Assembly: GCA_965287045.1 (NCBI GenBank) | Contig: OZ336877.1 | Coordinates: forward strand, 56,234,001-56,298,000 | Length of the DNA stretch: 64,000 nt | Direction of reading: 5' to 3' | DNA from: Carcharhinus amblyrhynchos | Lineage: Eukaryota | Shown: positions 8,976 through 64,000 of the stretch, in pieces | How positions within the stretch are numbered: the stretch's first letter is position 1 | Layout: every line of letters begins with the position of its first letter | Made by a program: the position numbers and the translations under genes | Notes under the pieces: generated by a model | The model's database searches: none | Seen by the model: only the letters and a program-made list of their open reading frames with translations | Told to the model about the DNA's origin: nothing

Positions 8976-10097
8976 ATGTTGGCCTTTATAGCGAGAGGGA
9001 TAGAATATAAAAGTAGGGAGGTCTTGCTGCAACTGTACAGAGTACAGATGCCGGAGTTGAAGGGGTTGAGCTATGAGGAGAGGCTGAATAAACTAGGCTT
9101 GTACTCGTTAGAGTTTAGAAGGATGAGGGGAGATCTCATTGAGACGTATAAGATGATGAATGGGATGGATAGGATAGAGGTGGAGAGACTCTTCCCACTC
9201 AGAAAGGATAGTAGGACTAGGGGGCACAGCCTCAAGATAAAGGGGGGGCGGTTTAGAACGGAGTTGAGGAGGAACTTCTTCACTCAAAGGGTGGTGAATC
9301 TCTGGAATTCTCTGCCCGTTGAAGTGGTGGAGGCTGCCTCGCTAAATATTTTTAAGACGCGGGTTGATGGGTTTTTGATAAGAGAGGGGATTAAGGGTTA
9401 TGGGGGGAGGGCAGGAATGTGGAACTGAGCCACGACAGATCAGCCATGACCTTATTGAATGGCGGGGCAGGCTCGAGTGGCTAGATGGCCTACTTCTGCT
9501 CCTATTTCTTATGTTCTTATGAGTACTGGTGAGGCTGCAGCTGGAGTACTGTATGCAATTTTGGTTGCCGCACTTGCGGAAGGATATATTGGCCTTGGAG
9601 GGAGTGCAGAGGAGGTTCACTAGGCTGATACCGAAGATGAGGGGGTTGGACTATGAAGAGAGACTAAATAGACTGGATCTGTACTCATTGAAGTTTAGAA
9701 GGATATGGAGGGATCTTATAGAGACATATAAGATGATGAAGAGGATGGATAGGGTAGAGGTAGAGAGATTCTTCCCGCTTAGAAAGGATAGCAGGACTAG
9801 AGGACACAGCCTCAAGATAAGGGGGGGTGCGGTTTAGATCGGAGTTGAGGAGGAACTTCTTCACTCAAAGGATGGTGAATCTCTGGAATTCTCTGCCAGT
9901 TGAAGTGGCGAAGGCTACCTCGCTAAATATATTTAAGTCACGGGTAGATAATTCCCCTGTCTATCAGAAACCTAAGGGTTATGGGGAGAAAGCGGGAAAG
10001 TGGAACTGAGCCACTTCAGATCAGCCATGATCTTATTGAATGGTGGGGCAGGCTCGAAGGGCTAGATGGCCTACTCCTGCTCCTATTTCTTATGTTC
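8976..10097 (+). mobile_element. Nested CR1 LINE 3' fragments (inner copy 9046-9520 inside an outer copy)
   Basis: Two near-identical ORF2 C-termini, each ending in a ttcttatg tail; 6-bp TSD gagtac at 9040-9045 and 9521-9526. Confidence 0.9.
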
Positions 10098-49902: not shown

Positions 49903-50101
49903 CATGTTTTCGCAGCCATCCCCACCACAGTTTGGACAACAGGCAAACACCAGCATGTACAGCAACAATATGAATATCAGTGTTTCTATGGCAACCAATA
50001 CTGCCAGTATGAGCAACATGAATCAGATGTCAGGGCAGATTAGCATGACCTCAATGACCTCTGTGCCTACATCAGGATTGTCCTCTATGGGTGCTGAACA
50101 G
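49903..50101 (+). CDS. NCOA2: NCOA2 coding exon (~exon 21), AD2
   Basis: aacacag|C..CAG|gtaaga; 199 nt, phase 2-0; [41 protein letters not shown]. Confidence 0.96.
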
Positions 50102-50819
50102 GTAAGAGATAAGCGGTATTTTCTGAATGTAATTGAAATTAACACATGTTATATTAGCAGTAAAATGTTTGGAACAATACCTACGATTTAAGCATATGCA
50201 TCTTACCAAAGGCTAGAGACTTGAAGGTGGGACAATTTTAAGATTATTGTGAAAATGCTTTATTGAAGTACTATCTATTGGGAAGCATTTCAAGTATTTA
50301 CGGTCTAGGATAAAAACCAGAAGTATTAAACTAGAATGCTACTTATTGCGATCAAAATTCACTGAAAGAAGATACTGTTCTTGCAGATACAAGTTGCTGC
50401 TGCAGTGTTCTTGGCTCATCTTTCAATGTTGTGTTGTAAAAACAGCTAACACATTTTTATAAATCATTTAATTGTATTGTCAGAGGTTGTGCTGCTTTCT
50501 AATAGCCAAATGGAAATTCATTCTTTTTTTTACTGGATATGTACAATACTTAGCATTAAAGGTTTAAAATTTCTATATGTTTAAATTCTGGACATTTGGC
50601 ATTTGGATATATAATTTTATGACTCGGAATTTTAATGGATCAGCAATAAATCTTCAGCTCCAGATTCTTATCTGTCCACTTTGTTCCTATTCTTTTAATT
50701 TGCCTGTACTGATCTGGACTAAGACATTAACTGTTTGTAGTGAAATGCACAAAGAAGAGGGCATGATTCTCTCTCTGCCTGCTGTCAGAAATATTTTTTA
50801 AATTGTAAGACTTCTTATA

Positions 50820-51332
50820 GAAGCAGAGACAGGGAACATTTTCATAAGGAAATGGCAGAGGCATTGAACAAATATTTTGCCTGTCGTCAAGTGGAAAACC
50901 AGAAATAGATAATAAATTAGGGGCTGTAAAGTGAGTATCAGCAGATAAAAAGCATTGGAGAAACTTGAGGGACTAAAACTGATGACCTACACCCTAAGGG
51001 TTCTAAAGAGATAGTTGCAGAGATGGTGGATGTGCTGGCTATGATTTTCCAGAATTCCTTGGATTCAGAGACAAGCCCATTGGGTTGGAAGATGGCAAAT
51101 ATTACACCACTTTTCAAGAAAGGAGAGAGAAGAGACACAGAAAACTATAAGCCAGTTAGATGAACATTAGATGTTGGGAAAATGGTGGAGTCTATTACAA
51201 AGGAAGTATTAACAATGCACTTAGGCATAATTTGATTAAAACAAATCAGCATGGTTTTACCAAAAGGAATATCCTGTTTGACAAATTTACTGGAGTCTTT
51301 TGAGGATATAACTAGTGGGATAGATAGAGGAC
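50820..51332 (+). mobile_element. CR1 LINE ORF2 internal fragment
   Basis: MAEALNKYFA, WKMANITPLFKKG, ENYKPV and SCLTNLLESFE motifs. Confidence 0.88.
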
Positions 51333-54300
51333 AGGTTTACAGTTGCATCTGTGTTTTCTTGATCAGTAAGCCTGAAGACTTTGCTGCTCCTCACTACAAT
51401 ATATTTTCAATATCTACCACACACTGCAACTTTATCATATTTCAATACCTCCAAAGATCTCATTAAAGCATCAAGTTAGAGTAAGCTATTAGAGAAGTAA
51501 ATAAAAGAACAGGATTGGAGTCAATAGAAAAGACTCCCGAGAATCATGTTCAGTGTAAAACAGGTTACTGATTCACAGTCCATTATCCACTCCTGTACTG
51601 GAAATTTCACCTCACAAAGCTCACTCACAGTAAACTTCCATTTGGAACAAAATAAACAGAACTCCAGCTCGATTCCACCCTCTGTTGGCAAGATAGTTCT
51701 GGATGTCAAAGGTCATCTAACCCAGCTCATCACACTCATACAGAATGACTTGCATATTAGGAGCAGAAATGAGCCATTCGGCCCCTTGAGTTAATATTGC
51801 CATTTGGTAGCATTGCTTACATTATGTCTGTGATTACTGTCAACAACTGTGCCTTTAACTTCCAGCAATGCAGCCACAAACCACAGTCCTCTCTCTGCCC
51901 AGGTGCTCCATTTGCTTCTTTTACAACTATAGCAGTGACAGTCAGCATCAGCCTCCTGCAATTGAATGCAGCTTCCCTCTGAGGGACAGAGTGCCTGTAT
52001 GAACTGGAGGCTAGCTGGAACGTTTGTTAGTTTCCCACATTGTCAGACCCTTGGTCACATTGGGCAACACGACAAAATCATTCAAATGAGGAGACAGCAC
52101 AAAATTTGCATACTGTCTCTCTCTGCAGGAAGAAGCTTATTACAAATCGATTGTCCGACACCCCAAAACTGGCATATGCCTAAACTTTTGCCTTGCATAT
52201 TCATAAAATGTTTTAGCGTTTGTTTTAGTATTGCATACTAATCTTTTCTCCTCCCTTTCTCTGCCTTTAGCTTCCTCCATTAACTTTCTCATTTCATTCC
52301 TTCACTTTCCATCATCATTCTGTTTGTTAATTGAACCTTGCTGCTGATATTTGCACCTTTTTCCATTGCAGGTCTTGTTTGAGCCATGTCTCAGTTAATG
52401 TAACTGTCATAATTCCATCCAGCAATTTGTGCCTGCCGAACCATCTTAGTTGTGCTCTGGATATTGTGTATATGCAGATTTAATGCTTCCTTCAGTACAT
52501 GTGCTACTTTCCTCAATCAGGTCCCTGTGATTTGTGGGATATTTCTAATTTTACTGCTCACTGCTGCTATTTTCTGGTTGCTTTTCTTTGCCAAAGTCCT
52601 TTAAACCTTCACCAACAATATTAATTGACTTCTCGGCAAGAACAATGGTCTCAGCTTTGTTCAGATGTAAACTGTCCATGTTGTACCAACACCCCATCCT
52701 GGCTAGCCATGAGCACAGGAAGTGTCTCCAGTTGCTAGAGCTCAAGCTTTACAATTCTAGTCCATGGTCATGATTTCCCACGTAGAGCAGGATGTTAATG
52801 GGCTTCTGTTGGAAGAAATTTGTACATTGCTTTTTGCAGGCATGGTTTCAACAAAGAAACAAAAGCTTTTGTACTTTTCAAGTTAGTCAGCATAACCAGT
52901 TGCACTTCCGCAAGCCCTACTGAATTTAAAATAAGGTCATCAGGGTAACCTTCTGGAACATTAATGCAATCAATACTAAGGAAATAGATGCCAACGCAAA
53001 TAGTCATAAGCTTTATACAATTTCCATCCCATTTTCCCTTGAGTCGGAAGAGAAAAAATACTTGATGTTTACTGGATCAGTTACGTAATAATGGTTTTAT
53101 AAACACGTGAGGAAAAACATTCTTATTGTCTTTTCCAACCTGATTCACTTTTTCTTTGTATCAAGATCCTTTTCAGATCAGCGAACATGTCTGAAAGTAG
53201 TACATTAGGCGCCCGATGTTTAAATGTAGGCCATTAGGCTGGTCATTGGTGAAAAAAATCAAACTCCTACACCATTAGTTCTGCCTACTGCTTGTTAATC
53301 AGAATTTCTTTTCATGGCAGCTGACAAATTTGCTAATGACAAGTCAGTCCAGGGATATTGTTTCTTCTCTCAGGTTTGATTAGATGAATATTCAGATACA
53401 CTGAGCACCACCGGAATCATGTTTCCCTGCCTTTACTGTTGTGGAATAGATGCTGTCAGCTTTTTTGGTGAAATTTATGCTCCACAAGCTCTCAGATGCT
53501 AGTGTTTGAAAATTTTGATTTTTGGTACACAGTACCTATAAACAGTGCTCCAGTATTTCTAAGCAGTGCTTCCTAAGCATATTTTTCCTGCTGTGATCCC
53601 ATATTAATTCCTCAGTGTCATGTGGGCCAGGGTGTGTGGGATAGGGAGGACAGGAGGGCTGCGTCAGCATGTGAGAAGCTGCAAGTGACTCCTAAATAAG
53701 TGTAGGTGGGTTGTTTAGCTCCTGAGCAGTGAATGTAGTTGTTTAAACGACATGTCTTTTTAAAAGATTAAACACCTGCCTTTCTGTGTCTCTTTTGCAC
53801 AGCAAACAGGTCTCAAAGATGTCCATTAGGTCCTGTCCATCAATCAAAAAAAATAAGAATTTAAAGGGGCTCCGCAGCTGTTAGCATTCAGCCTGAGCTC
53901 CACAGCTGCCTTTGCTGCGTCACAACTGGCAAACCCAAAATCTTGTGTTGCAACCCACAAAGAGGATTCTTATTCCTATTTAAAAATTAAAGATTTCAGG
54001 TTTCATTTGCAGAATGAAACAGGAAGGAAATTGATGAGACACAATAGAGTCCAAAATATGTGAGGAAAATATGTGAAAAAAAGAATGAATACATACAGTC
54101 CAGTTAAGATAAATTTCACCTCCATTACACCACTTATGGACTCACTATTAAAGTCTCATTTAACCCTCTTTAAATTTAAATGTGGAACTAAGAATCTATG
54201 TTTATTATTATGGCTTGAATAACTAACCTGCCACAAAGGTGGTGGAATATTAAGAAATAGAGATTAGACACATGGGAACAGTTACAATCTTGCTTTTAGT

Positions 54301-55039
54301 CAACAATTACTTGGGATGGACCAAGTCAGCCTCTGATTGATGACCCTCAGTCTTAAGGGGACTATTAATGTTGTATCTTTGAAAGTTTACCCCTGTACCT
54401 GCTCCATGCCCAACTTGAAATAAAGGTTGGAATTTGTTGCACCATGAGAATACAGGTGGTTGCAGCTGCCCTGAGTACAACCTTTGTTCTTTTCCCACCA
54501 AAAAAGTCCATTCAGGTCATCAAATTTGTGATGCCAGTAAGGCTGGCACAACACATGCTGTGTTATGTGCAGCTCAATCTGACTTCTGTCACAGTAGAAT
54601 GGGTAAGTTGAGGTTAGTTTTCAGGACACCCCAAGGTTCCAGGCAGCTTGGTTCGGCCTGGGGTAAGTGACTGTTTCTGTGAAGATGGTGGCTTCAGTCA
54701 TCCTAATGTTTAGCTGATGGAAATTGCAGTTCATCAAAAATGGGATATCAGACGAGCAAGCCAACAGCATACAAAGCAGGAAGTGATTAGGAGAAGTAGT
54801 ATAGTAGTAGCTGTACATATAATTCACACTGTGAGTAGTGTGAACTATATACGTAACATATTAATTTGTTTTAACTCCCATCCTCTTCCTAAACCTCTGC
54901 AGATTTATATAAATTTCTTCAATATAAAGTCTCATGTTTTCGACTAAATCTTGAATATCTTTATTTGTCTTCCATTTATCCTACATTTTTTTAACTATTC
55001 TTCATTTCCAATAATAACCTGAAACATATATGGGGAGAT

Positions 55040-56003
55040 TGTGTCGCGATGATAATGTTACTGGGCTAGTAATTCAGAGGCCCAGGCTAATGTCCTGGGT
55101 CATGGGTTCAAATACCACCGCAGCAGTTAGTGGAATTCAAATTCAATTAATAAATCTGGAATATAAATCTAGTTTTAGTAATTGTGACCATAAAAGTATC
55201 ATTGATTGTCATTAAAAAAAAAAATCTGGTTCATTAATGTCCTTTAGGGAAGGAAATCTGCCATTCTCATCCATTCTGGACTACATGTGACTCCTGACGC
55301 ACAGCAATATGGTCAACTCTGAAATGGCCTCATGGTGGCACAGTGGTTAGCACTGCTGCCTCACAGCACCAGGAACCTTGGTTCGATTCCCAGCTTGGGT
55401 TACTGTCTGTGTGTTCTCCCTGTGTCTGTGTGGATTTCTTCCAGATGCTCCTGTTTCCTCCCACAGTCTGAAAGATATGCTGGTTAGCATTGGCCATGCT
55501 AAATTCTCCCTCAGTGTACCCGAACAGGCATCAGAGTGTGGCGACTAGGGGATTTTCACAATAACTTCATTGCAGTGTTAATGTAAGCTTACTTGCGATA
55601 CTAATAAATAAGCTTTAAACTTAGAAAGCTACTCAGTTCCAGGACAATTAGGGATGGGAAACCAGTGCTGGCATTAACAGGGATACACATATCAGTAATA
55701 CACATCTCTTCAACGTGTTTGGCCCTCTCTCCATTCACATTGTCTGTACCTTTAAGAATTGATTACCTGTAAAGACTTCCAATCATTATCTTGTAAGTTG
55801 AGTTTGAGTCTGTATATGACCTGTTTGTGAACACAAGCCTTCACTCACCTGATAAAGGAGTCTGAGACTCTGAAAGCTAGTGCCAAATAAACCTGTTGGA
55901 CTTTATCCTTGTGTTGTGAGACTTTTTACTGTGCCCACCCCAGTCCAACACTGGCATCTCCACATCATGATTACCAGTGATGCCCACAAAGAATTAAAAA
56001 AAA
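55040..56003 (+). mobile_element. tRNA-derived SINE interrupted by a V-SINE (55331-55622) and a Penelope family 2 repeat (~55700-55969)
   Basis: Outer pieces join to match the intact copy at 57085-57453; inner V-SINE starts tggcacagtggttagcactgctgcctcacag. Confidence 0.8.
55846..55882 (+). ncRNA. Degenerate minimal type I hammerhead ribozyme motif in a Penelope repeat
   Basis: CAC-CUGAUAA-A-GGAGUC uga GACUCU-GAAA-GC-UA-GUG: stems I and II and the palindromic AGCU element are present; core has CUGAUAA instead of CUGAUGA. Confidence 0.6.
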
Positions 56004-57084
56004 CAGCAACATAGCAATACTTTCATCCTTCACTATAAAAAACATTGTGCAAAATCATGGAGTTGGAACCTGAAAATACCATTAACACTCAATATTCCAT
56101 AATAAAAGCTCAATGTAACTTACTCAGTCAATAGCCCTTGCACATTACAATACCTGCAGTTTCACAAAAGAATTTATGTCAGTATTGTTTATCTATATTC
56201 TGCTGAGCTTATCCGTGTAGGGTTTGCAGAAACATGAACATTAAGGAGGTGACACATTTCTATTATGCCTGAATATTCTGATTTGTTGTAAACTTTGGAT
56301 GCGTCTTTACACAGTGACATGATGACCCAACTGTAATTAATATATTGCTGTAAGATCTCTAGCGAGCACTTTGAGTTTATTATGAAGTGGATGAATGGTT
56401 TAGGTGTGTATTCTATTAAGTGATGTGGCTGGAGTGCACAACTAATTAGTTTTACAACTCCACAATTAATTTTCAGCCCTAATCCATGTCATCATCTAGT
56501 GTGCTGAAGTAGCAGAGTGTAGATTGAGCCATCTTGATGATCACATCATTTATAGTCCTTTAAGCAACTTGCTATATTCGGTAGGACAGAGTATTGCTGA
56601 AAAGAGACTTTTTTGTCAAAATTTTTCATCTTGCACTCATCTAGACATTCTTGTTGTTGGTATATCAAACCAATTTATGAAATACATCATGTTGTTTGTA
56701 AAAATGTATCATATACAACACTGAATTATCTAAAAGGAATCCCTTAAAATATGGATTCATCTTCCATTAATCCAAAGTCTACATGCCATTTCTGTCATCT
56801 TTCTGCAAACAGACCTTTAGGATTCTGATTTTTAAAATCACATTCTGAGCAGTCCATGCCCTATCAAGTGTAGTTTCAGATCACATTTAGCTTTTCCTAA
56901 AAACTTCTGTCATCAAAAAAATCTGTTTCCAAATGGTTTGAGTTCTGGGGGGAAAGGCACTGTAAGCTCCTGAGTTTCAGAAAAATGCAAATAAACACCG
57001 CAGAATCATTTCCCAGTGGAGATTTCTTTCTGCTTGAGTATGATGCCTTCTGGTTGTGTGTTTTTTAATTGTAAAGGTCAAGGG

Positions 57085-57453
57085 GGAGGTCAATGGCTAT
57101 TATTGCTTGACTTTTAATCCAGAAACTCAGCTAATGTTTTGGGGACCTGGGTTTGAATCCCACCATGACAGATGGTGGAATGTGAATTCAATAAAAACAA
57201 AATCTGGAATTAAGAATCTACTCGTGACTGTGAAACCATTGTCAATTGTCAGAAAAACCCATCTGGTTTGCTAATGTCCTTTTAGGGAACAAAATCTGCC
57301 ATCCTTATCTGGTTTGGCTCCAGGGCCACAACAATGTACTTGACTCTCAACTGCCTATGAAATGGCCTAGCAAGCCACTCAATCCAAGGAGAATTTGGGA
57401 TGGGCAATAAATGCTGGCCAGCCAGTGATGCCCATCTTCCGTGTATAAAAAAA
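57085..57453 (+). mobile_element. tRNA-derived SINE with LINE-derived tail
   Basis: Box B gggtttgaatccc; body ctaatgtcctttagggaa..aaatctgccatcct; tail gggatgggcaataaatgctggcc..A-rich, related to the LINE 3' end at ~23920. Confidence 0.8.
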
Positions 57454-59899
57454 GAAGTACAAGATTGTTGAAGCCTGTTTCCTCATGGCAAAGGAACTTT
57501 GAGATATGGACTATCACAGAATTATTATTTGCTCTTATCTAGATAGAGGATCAAACAGGCTTAGAGAACCATTGATTAAAGATTGGGAGAAAGCAGTATG
57601 AATTTGTGGGCCCTGCATAACATTTAGTGTCCCTCAGAACAGTTAATTCGCTTGGCTTTCTCTTAACATCAAGAACCAGTAGCCTGCATGAATTGTGATC
57701 TCTGGGTGTCTCAATGTCAATGTTTTATCTGCTGTGCATTGTTTCTTCCAGTGAAGGTAATCCATAGTTGATGTGTGCAGGATATGAGGCTTTAATACAC
57801 ATTGAATTAAAAACATTTTCATTAATGTTTGTTTCATTTGGAAACAATACTTTATGAAGAAACCTACTAATCAAAATTAAACTCACTCTACGTGCCTCTT
57901 CTTGGGCCCACATGTAGAGGGAAATCCATTGGAACAACTAGCATGCCTTTGCTAACACCTGCGCTAACAACTCCCAGATCAAACTTGGCAGTACCATGTT
58001 CCAACCTGACTGGAAGATGTATGTCCTCAGAACAATGATGATAAAATTTAAATTTGTAAGACCTGTATCAAGCTCTGACTTGGCAGAGCTTGAATCCTTT
58101 ATTATTTTTCTATTGCATAATGCACTTGATTTTTTTTTGGAGGTGTCAAAAAATTCAGATCAGAGCAAGGCTTTTCTTATAACAAATGGGGGGACGGTAT
58201 GGATGGAGGTAGTGCAGGGAAGGAATCTCCTGACTCTCTATAGTGCACAGTTTTCTGAGAGGGATTGTATATGAGGTTTGCCTTTCTTTCCAGTGGAATA
58301 ATTGAAGTATTCTATCGAAAATGCAGAAGACTTAAAATTTTGAGCCTGAGCAAATTGTCATTCTACGCTGTGCACAATATTGCAAATAATCTGATTCCAT
58401 TACAGTATCGCAGAAGGAATGTTTAATTTTGAGGATCAGATAAGTAGTTATTTTGAATTCAAAGGAGCTCGAGACAGCCTTGAGGCAATAATATTTTCAT
58501 TCATTAATTGCATGTATTATGTAAAAATAATATCAATTATTCATGATGTTGGCTTCCACAATTGAATTACCTGCCAGCATTCAGTATCTAAGCTCAAATA
58601 TGAAAAACGATTATTTGAGAGAGATGGAATCTGTGGAACTATATGTAAAAGAGACAATGTTTTCAGGAGAGGTGGGGGGGTGGGAGGAGAGGAAATATGT
58701 GGTACTGAAAGGTGACACCAGTGTTGAGTAATGGAACTTTTTTGCAGTAAGTTTGGGTATCAGATTAGCTATAGTGCAGCAAGATCGAGTAACACTTGCT
58801 CTACTTTCACTTTAATGGTGGACTTCAATTCCAACCAGCAAGGACTTCGTTAGTTGCCATACTTGCTATCCTTGTGCTCTATCTGAAAGAGCCAATTTAT
58901 GCTATGGGCTGGGAACTCGTTTTTCAGAACATTTCTGGTCAATGGGAGTGACTTTAAAACTACCCAAGAAGAACTGAGTTTCAATGGTCCTCTCCTTTAT
59001 TTTAAGACTCTTGGAGCCATCAAAGAAAAATGATAGTTATTTCATCGGTCCAAACTGGAATTGATGCCAGGTGCCAGAGCTGGAAGGACACTGCTATTTC
59101 ACTGCATGTTTATCAAGATGTGAACCATGTGAAGTCTTTACTTTATGGAAGGAAAGATTAAACTATGTTAGTTATTTAGATAACTTGCGAATTAGTATTT
59201 TGATTCAGATATTGAGGTTAACTGGTGCCTTGCTCTCAATCCTGATTCTGACTAGATTCAGATTTTTGCGTCTGTCACAAATGGTACTCAAGAAAAACAT
59301 GACCTTTTTAAACTAAAATAATACAATATAATATTAATAATGAATACATTCAGGGTAAAGATACAATTTATATTCAATTAACCAAGCCATGCTTAATGTC
59401 ACTAATATAATTTCAAATCTAAGCTCTAATTCTCCTTCCAGATGCCCAATCACTTGTACCATTTTAAAAATCGATGTTATTGAACATGTCACTGCATTAA
59501 CCCTGCTAAAATACATATTTCTAAGCAATTCTTGATCTAAACTTATTCAGTGTATTTTTAATGTATTCTTGTGCTTTTTTTTCTATGTTAAATTACTTCA
59601 CATGTCCATTTGATCTGAACTGCCTACAGAGCTAACATCAATCTCAATTAGAAAACCCTCTTATTCTTGTACAACAAAGAATGTTTTCTTACAGAATCGT
59701 ATGTCTTTATTTTCTCTGTTAGGAAATACTTTCCCTGAGCTACTATCTTCAGTTTCATTAGCTGGTTCACAAAAAAATCAATCGCCTTCTCTGTAATATT
59801 CGGATAACCTGATCACTCTTTCACGAACAAAAATGCCACATTGTTTTTCCTACGATGCCATAGTTTAGGCACAAATACTCCCAACACAGGGTTTACAGA

Positions 59900-60480
59900 T
59901 AGAAGATAAATCCACATGGCAGACGGGTCAGAAAAGTCAGTCCCATGTGACACAGGGGAAGGTGGTCAGTTGCTACACAGAGAGTACAGTGGAAATTAAC
60001 AAGAATGTTGCCAGCGCTTGAAAATTGCAGCTATGAGGAAAGATTGGATAGGCTAGGGTTGTTTTCCTTCGAATAGAGGAAGCTGAGGGATGACCTAATT
60101 GAAGTAAACAAATTTATGAGGGATCTAGATAGGGTGGACAGGAATTACTTATTTCCCTTAGTGACAAGGTCAATTATCAAGGGGTATAGATTTAAGGTGA
60201 TTGATAGAAGGATTAGAGGGGACATGAAGAAAACCTTTTCACCAAGCAGATGCTGTGTGACTGGAATTCACTGCCTGAGTTGTTGGTTGAAGCTGAAACA
60301 TTCAATTTAATTACAAAGTACCTGCATCTGCACCTGAAGTATTATAAACTGAAAGGTGAGGGGACCAGGTGCTAGAAAGCCAGATTAAAATGAACAGTTA
60401 GTTTCCTTTCTTTTTTGTCCAGCACAACCACAATGGGCTCAATGGCCTCTTTCTGTGTCTTAACATTTCTGTAGTTCTAA
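59900..60480 (+). mobile_element. CR1 LINE 3' fragment
   Basis: YEERLDRLGLFSFE, MRDLDRVDRNYLFPLV..KGYRFKV. Confidence 0.85.
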
Positions 60481-60514
60481 TTACCTGGCATCTCGGGTAT
60501 TTTTTGGGAAAAGA

Positions 60515-61022
60515 TGGCCAATATTGTTTCCTCAGTCACCATCAGAAAAACAGATTATTTAATCGCTATTACATTGCTCTTTGTGGGAGCTTCTGTACAA
60601 ATTAGCTGCCAGATTTCCTGCATTACAAAAGTGACCACGCTTCAAAAGTATTTCATTGGTTAGTGGTTAGCATTGCTGCCTCGCAGCACCAGGGACCTGG
60701 GTTCAATTCCAGCCTCGGGTGTCTGCCTGTGCAGAGTTTGCAGGTTCTCCTTGTGTCTGTGTGGGTTTCCTCCGGGTGCTCTGTTTTCTCCCACATCCAA
60801 AGATGTGCAGGTCATGCCAAATTTCCCTTAATGTTTCAAGACATGTAGGTTAGAGGGATTAGAGGGGTAAATATGTGGGGTTACAGGGTAAGCCTGTGTG
60901 AGAGTCGATGCAGATTTGATGGGCCGAATTACCATCTCCTGTACTGTAGGGCTTCTAGGCTCTTAAAGCCTTTTGAGAGAGCGAATGATCATGAACGATG
61001 TTGTATGAATGCGAGCCATTTT
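60515..61022 (+). mobile_element. SacSINE1-like 3' half interrupted by an HE1-like SINE (~60661-60960)
   Basis: Host aaacagattattt..ttcaaaagtatttcattgg resumes at aaagccttttgaga; insert begins agtggttagcattgctgcctc and ends ctgtagggcttcta. Confidence 0.75.
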
Positions 61023-61689
61023 TAAAAATTCTTTTAGATTGAGAGTATGATACTGGATGGATTTGAGTAAAGAAAAATCTCATCTTTGGACCTTTGAAAT
61101 GACGATCTTGTTCCAGAAGGATGTTATCGAAAGTAGCATTGGATAAGTTGAATTTTGTAGATGATTGTAATATGGTTAAAGTGGCATAATTTTATTGCGC
61201 TGTCTGTTTATTGCTCCTCTATAAGTAACTTCTCCCAGCTCTTACACAGCAAATAACATTAAGTATTTAGCACTAAAGTTAGTTTTTGATAGTTGTTGCC
61301 GATGTGAATGTGTTTTTTGTTACTTCGAGGAAAGATTTACTACAAGTGAATAATAACCAGCTGCAATAAATAATTGAGCGTGTTTCCATTAGTACAGACA
61401 ATAGATTGTTTTTATTATTCACCATTAGTTAAGCAAAATCTCAACCCATTCTTGTGTTCTAAAAACTCATTAAAAGGCAATAGTTTTAAAATACATTTAC
61501 ACTGTGTAACATTGTGTGCAGTACTTTTGTATTGATTTCTGTGCTACTGCTGCTAGCCCTCACTTTTTGGAATTGGAATTTTTCTATACTACAAAGCTAG
61601 TTCAATAGGCAGGGATTGTGGAAGGTTAAAAATATTGACAACATCTTATAAGTGATTCATGTATTATGAAACAAAGGGGGTTGAGGAGT

Positions 61690-62180
61690 TGGAATGGTGG
61701 AAGAGTGGACCAGGGTGTCACGGAGGGAGCAATCCCTCTGGAACACCCAGAAGAAACCCACACAGACCAGGAGTGAGGGGAAAGTATACTTTGGCAGAAA
61801 TGGTGGAAGGTGATCCTTTGAATGTGGAGGCCGGAGACCCTATCTTGGGTGGAAGGGAGAAGGGGTGAGAGCAGAGGTGCAGAAAATGGGTTGAATCTGG
61901 GTGAGTATCTTGTCAACATCAGTAAGCGGCAAAACCTCAAAGGAAAAAGGCAGATGTGTCAGAAGTGCCATTTTCAAAGATGGCATTATTGGAATAGATA
62001 TGACAGAGGCAAAGAAACTGGATGGAATGGGTTTGTAATAAATATTGGTGGTCAATCTATTGCTGGAAATGTAGAGATCAAGTGAGAAAGGAAGTGTCGG
62101 AGATGGACAATGTAGAGGTGAGAAGTGGAAATTAGAAGCAAAATCAGTAAAACTTTCCAAATCTGGATGAGAGCACATGT
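61690..62180 (-). mobile_element. Penelope-like retroelement RT fragment
   Basis: Minus ORF reads DLESFTDFASNFH..TLPFSLDLYISSNRLTTNIYYKP, a decayed Penelope RT LPFLD/YxKPT segment. Confidence 0.7.
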
Positions 62181-62427
62181 TCATTTTGGATGTTCTGATT
62201 TTTAAACTTGTTGCACCAGAATCCGGGATGATCAGTTCATTCTGAAGTACGTTAGTCATTTCTAAAAAAACACCACTTGAAACCAGTATGTCTGTGAAAT
62301 GTAGAGGGTAAAGAATGAGAAAGGAAGTGTTTATTATTAAAATCACATAAGTTTTAAATTTACCATGTTGCATTATGTATGTTTTTGTTAACTAAATACA
62401 TATTTTGTATTATTTTTCACTCTGCAG

Positions 62428-62439
62428 AAGTATTGCTGA
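62428..62439 (+). CDS. NCOA2: NCOA2 terminal coding exon (KYC*), followed by 3' UTR
   Basis: tttttcactctgcag|AAG TAT TGC TGA; KYC is the conserved NCOA2/NCOA3 C-terminus; phase 0 fits exon 21; I see no AATAAA before the window end. Confidence 0.93.
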   Translation, partial: KYC

Positions 62440-62474
62440 CCCTCAGGATTGTTATTCCTCCTGTTTTCAACAAG

Positions 62475-62649
62475 GTCCAGAAGATCCATGTGTTTGCTGA
62501 TGTACAGTGCAAGGTCAACATTTAGGGTGGTAACAATTATAACCAACAAACAAACTCCACCAGATCAAGCCAAGAAAAGTACAGCAGCCAATTGAACCCT
62601 CAGCCAGGCTTGGAGAAGTTGTTTGTTACAAGAGTTGCTAACAGAGTGA
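62475..62649 (+). pseudogene. Decayed SRC-1a-type alternative terminal exon (NR box IV relic) inside the NCOA2 3' UTR
   Basis: VQKIHVFADVQCKVNI*GGNNYNQ..NPQPGLEK then +1 frame CLLQELLTE*; resembles NCOA1a VQQVQVFADVQCTVNLVGG..QKSLLQQLLTE. Confidence 0.85.
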
Positions 62650-64000
62650 CAGGCTCCTTAGTAGCAACGTACTTGCCTACTGAAGCTGCTTTGCCCATTA
62701 ATTGCATTCACCATAAGTGTGACTTAAGTCTGTCCTCACAACAGATTGACATCGGCGTCGAACCTTGTCCGATGAATGTATTTCTATCGTCGTTTTGCAG
62801 ACTGAGCATATCTTTGCTCTTTTGATTTTGATCCTTGGTGGTTGCTGACTTTTCTGCTATTTAATCCAGTGTGCAGGCTTTCAGCCATGTTTTCCTCCAG
62901 CAGTATTTAGAAATGAAGCCTCTTTTTGAAAGGTTTTGCTGTGTGTAAAAGAAACAAGAACTTGCAGATAAATTGAGTGAATGCTGTAAGAGTAACAGAT
63001 TTTGGTTTGGAAAGTATCTCGATGAAATTTGAAATTTGTTTTTATGTTTTTGATAAAACCAAATGGGAATAGACTTCAGGTAGTTTATTAGTTGATGTCA
63101 GCAAAAGAGTTAATGTATTATCTTTTTATACTGGGGTTCTGCTCTGTGGAGTCATGACTTAACATCCAGGGTGTATGATTTTTTTTTTTGGTCATCATTT
63201 TTAAATACAACAGTTAACAAGTAGAATGCTTCTGGCTCCACAGACCAAGACTACCTGTTAAACGTTCTCAACTCTGTAGATGCCCACCAATTACACAAAA
63301 ATCACTTGTCCTACAGCTACTGTTACAAGTTGATAGAAAAAAAATCAAAGCACCAACAAACTCTGACCTGTTGCATAAGCAGATGGAAATGGTTTCTGAT
63401 TCTTACAGTGGTTATGATCTTGTCGGTAATTCATGTCTGAATTGTGGCTCTTCTCCACTTCCCCTTTTGAGATACACGTACGAGTGGCCTCCCAGGTCAA
63501 GTTTCCACACCAGCTACCACAGGAGCAGCTGGTTTCTTCTGAGCTAGTGACTCATGGCACTACCCACATAACAAAAGACAGGAGCAGTTTACCCTCAGCC
63601 TCAGGAAAATTCCCACATCCCACCATCCTAGTAGCAGCAATGTCACCAACAAAAGCAATTGATTTTGTCTCAGCCAGGAGCTCATTGCCACTTCCCTCAT
63701 TGCAGAGGCACCAAAAACTGTTCTGTCTTTCATCTGGTCCACATTCCTATTTCTATAGTCATAGTTGGTCTCTACTTGCAAAATATAACTGGCATCTTTT
63801 GAATCAAGGACTGATTTTTCCATTATCCCACTTCATTCTCTCCCCTTTCCTTTCACTTTTCTCAGAACAGTTACTGATCTCCCTCAGACTGTGCTCTGTT
63901 TCAGTGCCAAGCAGCAGGAGGTGACTCTTCTCAGAGAATCGACTGGTTCCTTGTGAACCAGGTTCCCTTGCAGCAGTCACTGGTCTCTTCTCTGTCCACT

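Follow-up and report, generated by a model that had tools for sequence, protein, structure and literature searches.

We propose, and consider probable, that the 3′ untranslated region (UTR) of shark NCOA2 holds a broken copy of the C-terminal tail of NCOA1a (SRC-1a), inherited from a single ancestral p160 gene. In our window, a 64,000-nt stretch of Carcharhinus amblyrhynchos contig OZ336877.1 (positions 56,234,001 to 56,298,000, forward strand), everything from position 62475 to the old stop codon is, as judged by location and letters, a broken homolog of that tail. Its LxxLL corresponds to the fourth one of NCOA1a, which we take to be the motif named NR box IV; it lies out of frame with the NCOA2 protein, owing to a TAG stop and a net +1 shift, and an independent contig agrees. 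What we describe is an evolutionary relic, apparently unreported; it entails no new function or mechanism and adds no working motif to shark NCOA2.

The NCOA2 terminal exon and its likeness to the NCOA1a tail

We identify the gene in the window, on sequence grounds, as the shark ortholog of NCOA2 (SRC-2/TIF2). Most matches of its exons to Mustelus NCOA2 were 88 to 100% identical, and a tree built from the large NR-box exon placed it within the NCOA2 clade, as sister to Mustelus (98/97); the initial annotation was thus right to call it NCOA2 rather than NCOA1. In the same tree (13 rows, no outgroup, no named NCOA3 included), the gene on contig C12 went with NCOA1, and that on contig C16 grouped with NCOA2 at 100/100. 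The window gene has three central NR boxes (LLQLL, LHRLL, and LRYLL) and the p160 Pfam domains PF08832, PF16665, PF16279, and PF08815. Its 3′ end is laid out as follows.

49903..50101, plus strand: penultimate NCOA2 exon, ending ...GAEQ with a phase-0 donor; all four contigs join it to 62428
50102..62427, plus strand: last intron, 12,326 nt, without trace of the 30-codon exon of chimaera and bony vertebrates
62428..62439, plus strand: proximal acceptor (AG at 62426-62427) and KYC-stop (stop at 62437-62439), the tail in shark transcripts
62436..62440, plus strand: branch-point-like CTGAC overlapping the KYC stop, with its A placed 35 nt ahead of where the distal AG ends; role conjectural
62452..62474, plus strand: distal tract of 76% pyrimidine, then AG at 62473-62474 (AAG type); annotated use in rays, none seen in sharks
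62475..62522, plus strand: 16 open codons, 11/16 identical to the NCOA1a tail and 14/16 to the commonest ray tail
62523..62525, plus strand: TAG stop, the same end codon as in ray isoforms
62526..62619, plus strand: dead GGNNY block and linker with the net +1 shift, whose place is uncertain within 62574-62619
62620..62649, plus strand: out-of-frame CLLQELLTE-stop (TGA at 62647-62649), whose LQELL at 62626-62640 is the LxxLL left from the fourth NR box

These coordinates and translations confirm the initial annotation's description of a second pyrimidine tract and AG 47 nt past the KYC acceptor, of 16 codons in phase 0 (the phase of the donor at 50101) ending at TAG, and of CLLQELLTE-TGA in the +1 frame. 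It had placed the shift near 62619; alignment puts it near 62574 or 62607. A shift at 62574 would bring one more TGA (62593-62595) into frame, so two lesions are a minimum. Hence, of its statement that only two lesions break the frame, the TAG and the net +1 shift stand, but the count is a lower limit, and the stop is old and common to rays. The CTGAC overlapping the KYC stop may be suitably placed as a branch point for the distal AG, which is speculation; NCOA3 has one too.

The NCOA1 gene of the same genome (C12) has an intact 55-residue tail 94 nt past the matching ...EQ exon, which we recovered with the relic as a protein query, translated with X at the breaks (E = 4e-7). Local DNA alignment of the two scored 227, against a mean of 81.5 and a maximum of 152 for shuffled sequence (0/2,000 as good); past the stop, similarity between NCOA1 and NCOA2 DNA was absent (235/500 shuffles as good). 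A frameshift-aware profile, built from 24 distinct NCOA1-type tails, scored 98.5 on the relic and at most 35.5 over 910 genomic windows. At 25 of 34 aligned codons, the relic and its own NCOA1 specify the same residue or stop; within the LxxLL block, 8 of 10 codons keep the NCOA1 residue. The homology first suggested in the annotation is thus borne out by position and sequence alike. As a DNA query against the 2.9-Gb genome, the relic stretch matched only itself. A homolog search with the relic read through its breaks yielded no candidate, which we do not count as evidence.

We also searched 1.84 billion representatives with the intact NCOA1 tail, which returned 25 proteins, 22 of them true tails; the other three (P0177, P0198, and P0199) were dropped as unrelated repeats. 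Ten of the 22 were looked up: six are named NCOA1, and none is named NCOA2 or NCOA3 or comes from a named outgroup, so that among these ten no named protein of lamprey, hagfish, or amphioxus bears the tail. The string QVFADVQCTVN is invariant in all 22. P0197 has a divergent NCOA1-type C terminus that ends LLME and follows a different penultimate exon. Pfam contains no model covering the tail.

Splicing of the 3′ end in sharks, rays, and other vertebrates

We compared contigs from 4 of 22 listed sequencing runs over 62300-63000; the runs are not recorded as RNA, and splicing is shown by the loose ends of the contigs. All four continue upstream into window positions 50069-50098, joining the donor at 50101 to the KYC acceptor at 62428, and all four hold KYC and the relic within one continuous exon, which puts the relic in the 3′ UTR. 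None used the distal acceptor at 62475; contigs drop rare isoforms, so minor use is possible. The first AATAAA beyond the stop lies ∼2.9 kb downstream (window-equivalent 65305), and the NCOA2 3′ UTR is therefore likely long.

Upstream of the terminal exon, a 30-codon penultimate exon is present in NCOA2 of chimaera, gar, sturgeon, and tetrapods and in Xenopus NCOA1. We sought it in the 12.3-kb NCOA2 intron (50102-62427) and did not find it there, and none of 101 shark and ray NCOA2 proteins has it; the last intron of shark NCOA1 (C12; L003:1407-1500), at 94 nt, is too small to hold it. From these comparisons, it looks as if the two elasmobranch genes, NCOA1 and NCOA2, lost the exon in parallel. 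Intronic open frames at 226-736, 8976-9425, 9523-9834, and 60077-60307 resemble one another and, by eye, fragments of LINE reverse-transcriptase tails.

Rays differ from sharks in their annotated use of the distal acceptor. We collected 106 NCOA2 protein ends from cartilaginous fish: 58 from sharks (11 species), 43 from rays (8 species), and 5 from chimaera; all are gene models from databases, with many for a single gene, and two of the clusters are listed in part (15 of 44 and 15 of 29). The distal acceptor was used in 26 of 43 ray proteins (five of eight species) versus 0 of 58 in sharks and 0 of 5 in chimaera. The distal tail occurs in Amblyraja, Rhinoraja, Narcine, Pristis, and Mobula hypostoma, but not in Hypanus, Hemitrygon, or M. 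birostris; Narcine and Pristis have both the KYC and the distal ends. All ray distal tails stop after residue 16, at the same codon as the shark TAG (as seen at the protein level), and the 16-amino-acid alternative tail that the initial annotation expected from this acceptor is thus annotated in rays. Its suggestion that the box might be intact in other cartilaginous fish did not hold up: none of the 106 proteins, which are gene models rather than UTR DNA, ends in an intact fourth box. A search with the ray C terminus ranked five ray clusters first, and no bony-vertebrate protein with the distal tail was among the 120 matches listed of 363.

Sharks and rays split some 270 to 300 million years ago, and because the stop is common to both, the fourth box has been dead a long time. 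The 16-residue ray tail is likely a living remnant of the ancestral tail. Among five rays it shows 2 changes in 16 columns, equal to the protein-wide median, against 0.146 per column for the rest of the protein, which is suggestive of constraint, albeit slow UTR evolution would look alike at the protein level. Since QVFADVQCTVN is invariant and rays keep this block as a spliced NCOA2 tail whose rate of change does not exceed that of the remaining protein, we tentatively raise a reading that we regard as rather doubtful: residues 1 to 16 of the SRC-1a tail might form a second binding motif apart from LxxLL, the ancestral p160 tail might have been bipartite, and some differences between SRC-1a and SRC-1e might be due to the 16-residue block. 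This conserved block of the SRC-1a tail can be tested separately from LxxLL.

Age and origin of the relic

The codon pattern argues that the relic went on coding for protein well past the duplication. Of the 33 sense codons aligned with NCOA1, 31 are identical at position 2 and 13 at position 3 (p = 3.5e-6); past the TAG, the values are 16/16 and 7/16. Had the copy been dead since the duplication, a rough Jukes-Cantor estimate gives an expected position-2 identity of ∼58% (p = 4e-6). Where the residue is the same, the relic also uses the identical codon at 9 of 24 sites, and the large exon does so at 37 of 117 (p = 0.64). Since alignability decided which codon blocks were compared, the codon figures are somewhat inflated. 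This pattern, together with synonymous divergence like that of the large exon, indicates that the copy is as old as the split of the paralogs and was coding long after it. The three paralogs are ascribed to the 1R/2R duplications ∼450 million years ago in PMC5419745.

An alternative is that the relic was kept as a conserved RNA element of the 3′ UTR or of splicing, and not through late coding. The UTRs of NCOA2 and NCOA3 can be aligned over ∼200 nt, and 62428-62474 has no listed difference in three related sharks, as such an element would have it. We nonetheless find it improbable, because conservation relative to NCOA1 follows codons and because among relatives the relic is no better kept than the UTR beyond it: the 175 nt of the relic carry 10 distinct events, as do the 351 nt that follow (p = 0.14), by an event listing with two to four fewer differences per run than the full difference count. 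With an event density not below that of the adjoining UTR, the relic appears unprotected in this shark group.

A fainter relic, absent from the initial annotation, lies in the gene on C16.

C16 ∼13061920-13062135, minus strand: fainter relic in the NCOA3 3′ UTR; similarity to NCOA2 stops near the old stop codon

We call this gene NCOA3 because its NR boxes (LLQLL, LHKLL, and LRYLL) equal the series listed for chimaera SRC-3 (PMC13468300, Table S6). Three bird entries named SRC-3 in that table (rows 72, 76, and 82) have LQQLL and the chicken SRC-1 motif series; they are likely mislabeled NCOA1, and we set them aside. Like that of NCOA2, the last exon of shark NCOA3 starts with KYC-stop. Anchored on this acceptor, its UTR aligned with the NCOA2 relic from +40 to +200 (0/2,000 shuffles as good) and showed no match to NCOA2 from +200 to +380 (774/2,000). 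NCOA3 also matched the initial 48 nt of the NCOA1 tail, at +46 (0/2,000); longer NCOA1 stretches of 75 and 168 nt gave 203/2,000 and 464/2,000. The profile peaked in NCOA3 at an offset of 46 to 47 nt, like NCOA2, a height reached at 0.19% of 237,618 positions and in 3.7% of 21-nt blocks; the NCOA3 offsets were chosen after looking. Unanchored tests were weak (39/910 windows; 164 and 64 of 2,000 shuffles), and protein searches of the shark's own genome did not detect the NCOA3 relic. It is likely, though not certain, that the NCOA3 3′ UTR holds a colinear trace of the same tail. All three paralogs would then bear the tail, intact or as a trace, at paralog-age divergence, the NCOA3 part reaching significance only with the shared acceptor as anchor; this fits the earlier claim that the tail predates the paralog split.

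Later copying from NCOA1 into NCOA2, by gene conversion or retro-insertion, would account for the high amino acid identity (the 25 of 34 codons above) and for the lack of an outgroup tail among the matches that we looked up. We judge it very unlikely: synonymous sites have diverged as deeply as those of the large exon, similarity ends right after the stop (the 235/500 shuffles above), and NCOA3 has its colinear trace. Inheritance from the common p160 ancestor thus remains our preferred origin.

It could also be asked whether sharks still translate the fourth box, either by read-through plus frameshift or through a cryptic AG at 62606-62607, from which the LQELL frame would be open in phase 0. 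The good preservation of the LxxLL block favors this, as does the position of the cryptic AG, which is in frame and would give a 13-residue tail. The tract before that AG is weak, however (52% pyrimidine), another AG lies 4 nt before it, no contig of the four joins to it, and none of the 106 proteins ends in the box. Moreover, in related sharks the motif is falling apart: one (run X11) has a stop within LxxLL as well as a 1-nt insertion at 62507, and the motif end is lost in two: in run X7, Cys is changed to Arg and 2 nt are deleted at 62643, and in run X12 both the TAG and the final TGA are gone, the frame still shifted; a change at 62588 is synonymous. Present-day translation accordingly seems very unlikely to us. 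That the stop and shift are assembly errors in an intact exon, a doubt attached to the initial annotation, can be practically dismissed, since the independently spliced X1 contig matches window 62425-63000 with 0 differences and 0 gaps, three of the four runs keep the TAG and none restores the frame, and ray proteins end at the same codon.

For the inherited tail, we envisage the following course. The acceptor 47 nt upstream (KYC-stop, common to NCOA2 and NCOA3) would have taken most of the splicing and pushed the tail into the UTR; this acceptor may have been gained in NCOA2 and NCOA3 or lost in NCOA1. The old distal acceptor may have been kept as an alternative in cartilaginous-fish NCOA2, the tail coding long after the duplication, until a stop at codon 17 cut the LxxLL away before sharks and rays parted. 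Rays likely still splice distally and make a 16-amino-acid tail without LxxLL; in this shark group, the stretch would decay as UTR, its fourth box yielding no protein. Neither the KYC nor the distal form is expected to be a target of NMD because both stop in the last exon.

Comparison with SRC-1 isoforms, KYC ends, and exon relics

We conclude that the common ancestor of the three coactivators likely had a tail with a fourth LxxLL, which two of them later lost. The fourth box is usually regarded as peculiar to NCOA1, and section 2.4 of a 2026 survey (PMC13468300) holds that paralog-specific SRC motifs were in part acquired later; the relics suggest the reverse for this motif, namely, that it is ancestral, was kept in NCOA1, and was lost in NCOA2 and NCOA3 via a change of splice acceptor. 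This would date one step in how the three coactivators split receptor binding. The main text of the survey is without the words "shark," "UTR," and "SRC-1a," and its supplement is without the cyclostome and amphioxus genus names that we searched. The available parts of PMC5419745, PMC6469829, and PMC3303173 held nothing further on a tail relic, and we found no report of one in NCOA2 or NCOA3 in literature whose coverage mostly leaves out subscription papers.

According to PMC10988192, NCOA1a has the extra C-terminal LxxLL, and this motif can bind GR and AR by itself; PDB constructs such as 5L7E carry it fused to MR. The shark NCOA2 copy shares with the NCOA1a tail (the human one is in the PMC13468300 supplement) its position after the ...EQ exon, its phase, and those 25 codons, but a stop and a shift break it, and it sits in the UTR behind the upstream KYC acceptor. 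As in the switch between SRC-1a and SRC-1e, whose ends are given as 56 versus 14 residues (PMC13199265), the choice of splicing at the 3′ end sets a short or an LxxLL tail. The means differ: SRC-1e is described as arising by inclusion of a separate cassette exon 22 (PMC3551673, Fig. 1 legend), whereas shark NCOA2 has two acceptors 47 nt apart in one terminal exon. Equating the KYC acceptor with the upstream acceptor of SRC-1e, as the initial annotation did, is at odds with that legend, and in the 94-nt last intron of shark NCOA1 we saw no acceptor of the KYC type.

The proximal acceptor and three-residue end of shark NCOA2 are those of the KYC-stop ends of jawed-vertebrate NCOA2 and NCOA3; what sets cartilaginous fish apart is the annotated 16-amino-acid alternative in rays, seen in no bony-vertebrate NCOA2 among the matches listed. 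Pseudo-exons, or exon relics, are familiar from whole-genome duplications, after which a formerly coding sequence decays in one paralog and stays intact in another. The p160 tail differs from that pattern: a single genome has it in three grades (intact, broken, and nearly erased), and rays retain it in part.
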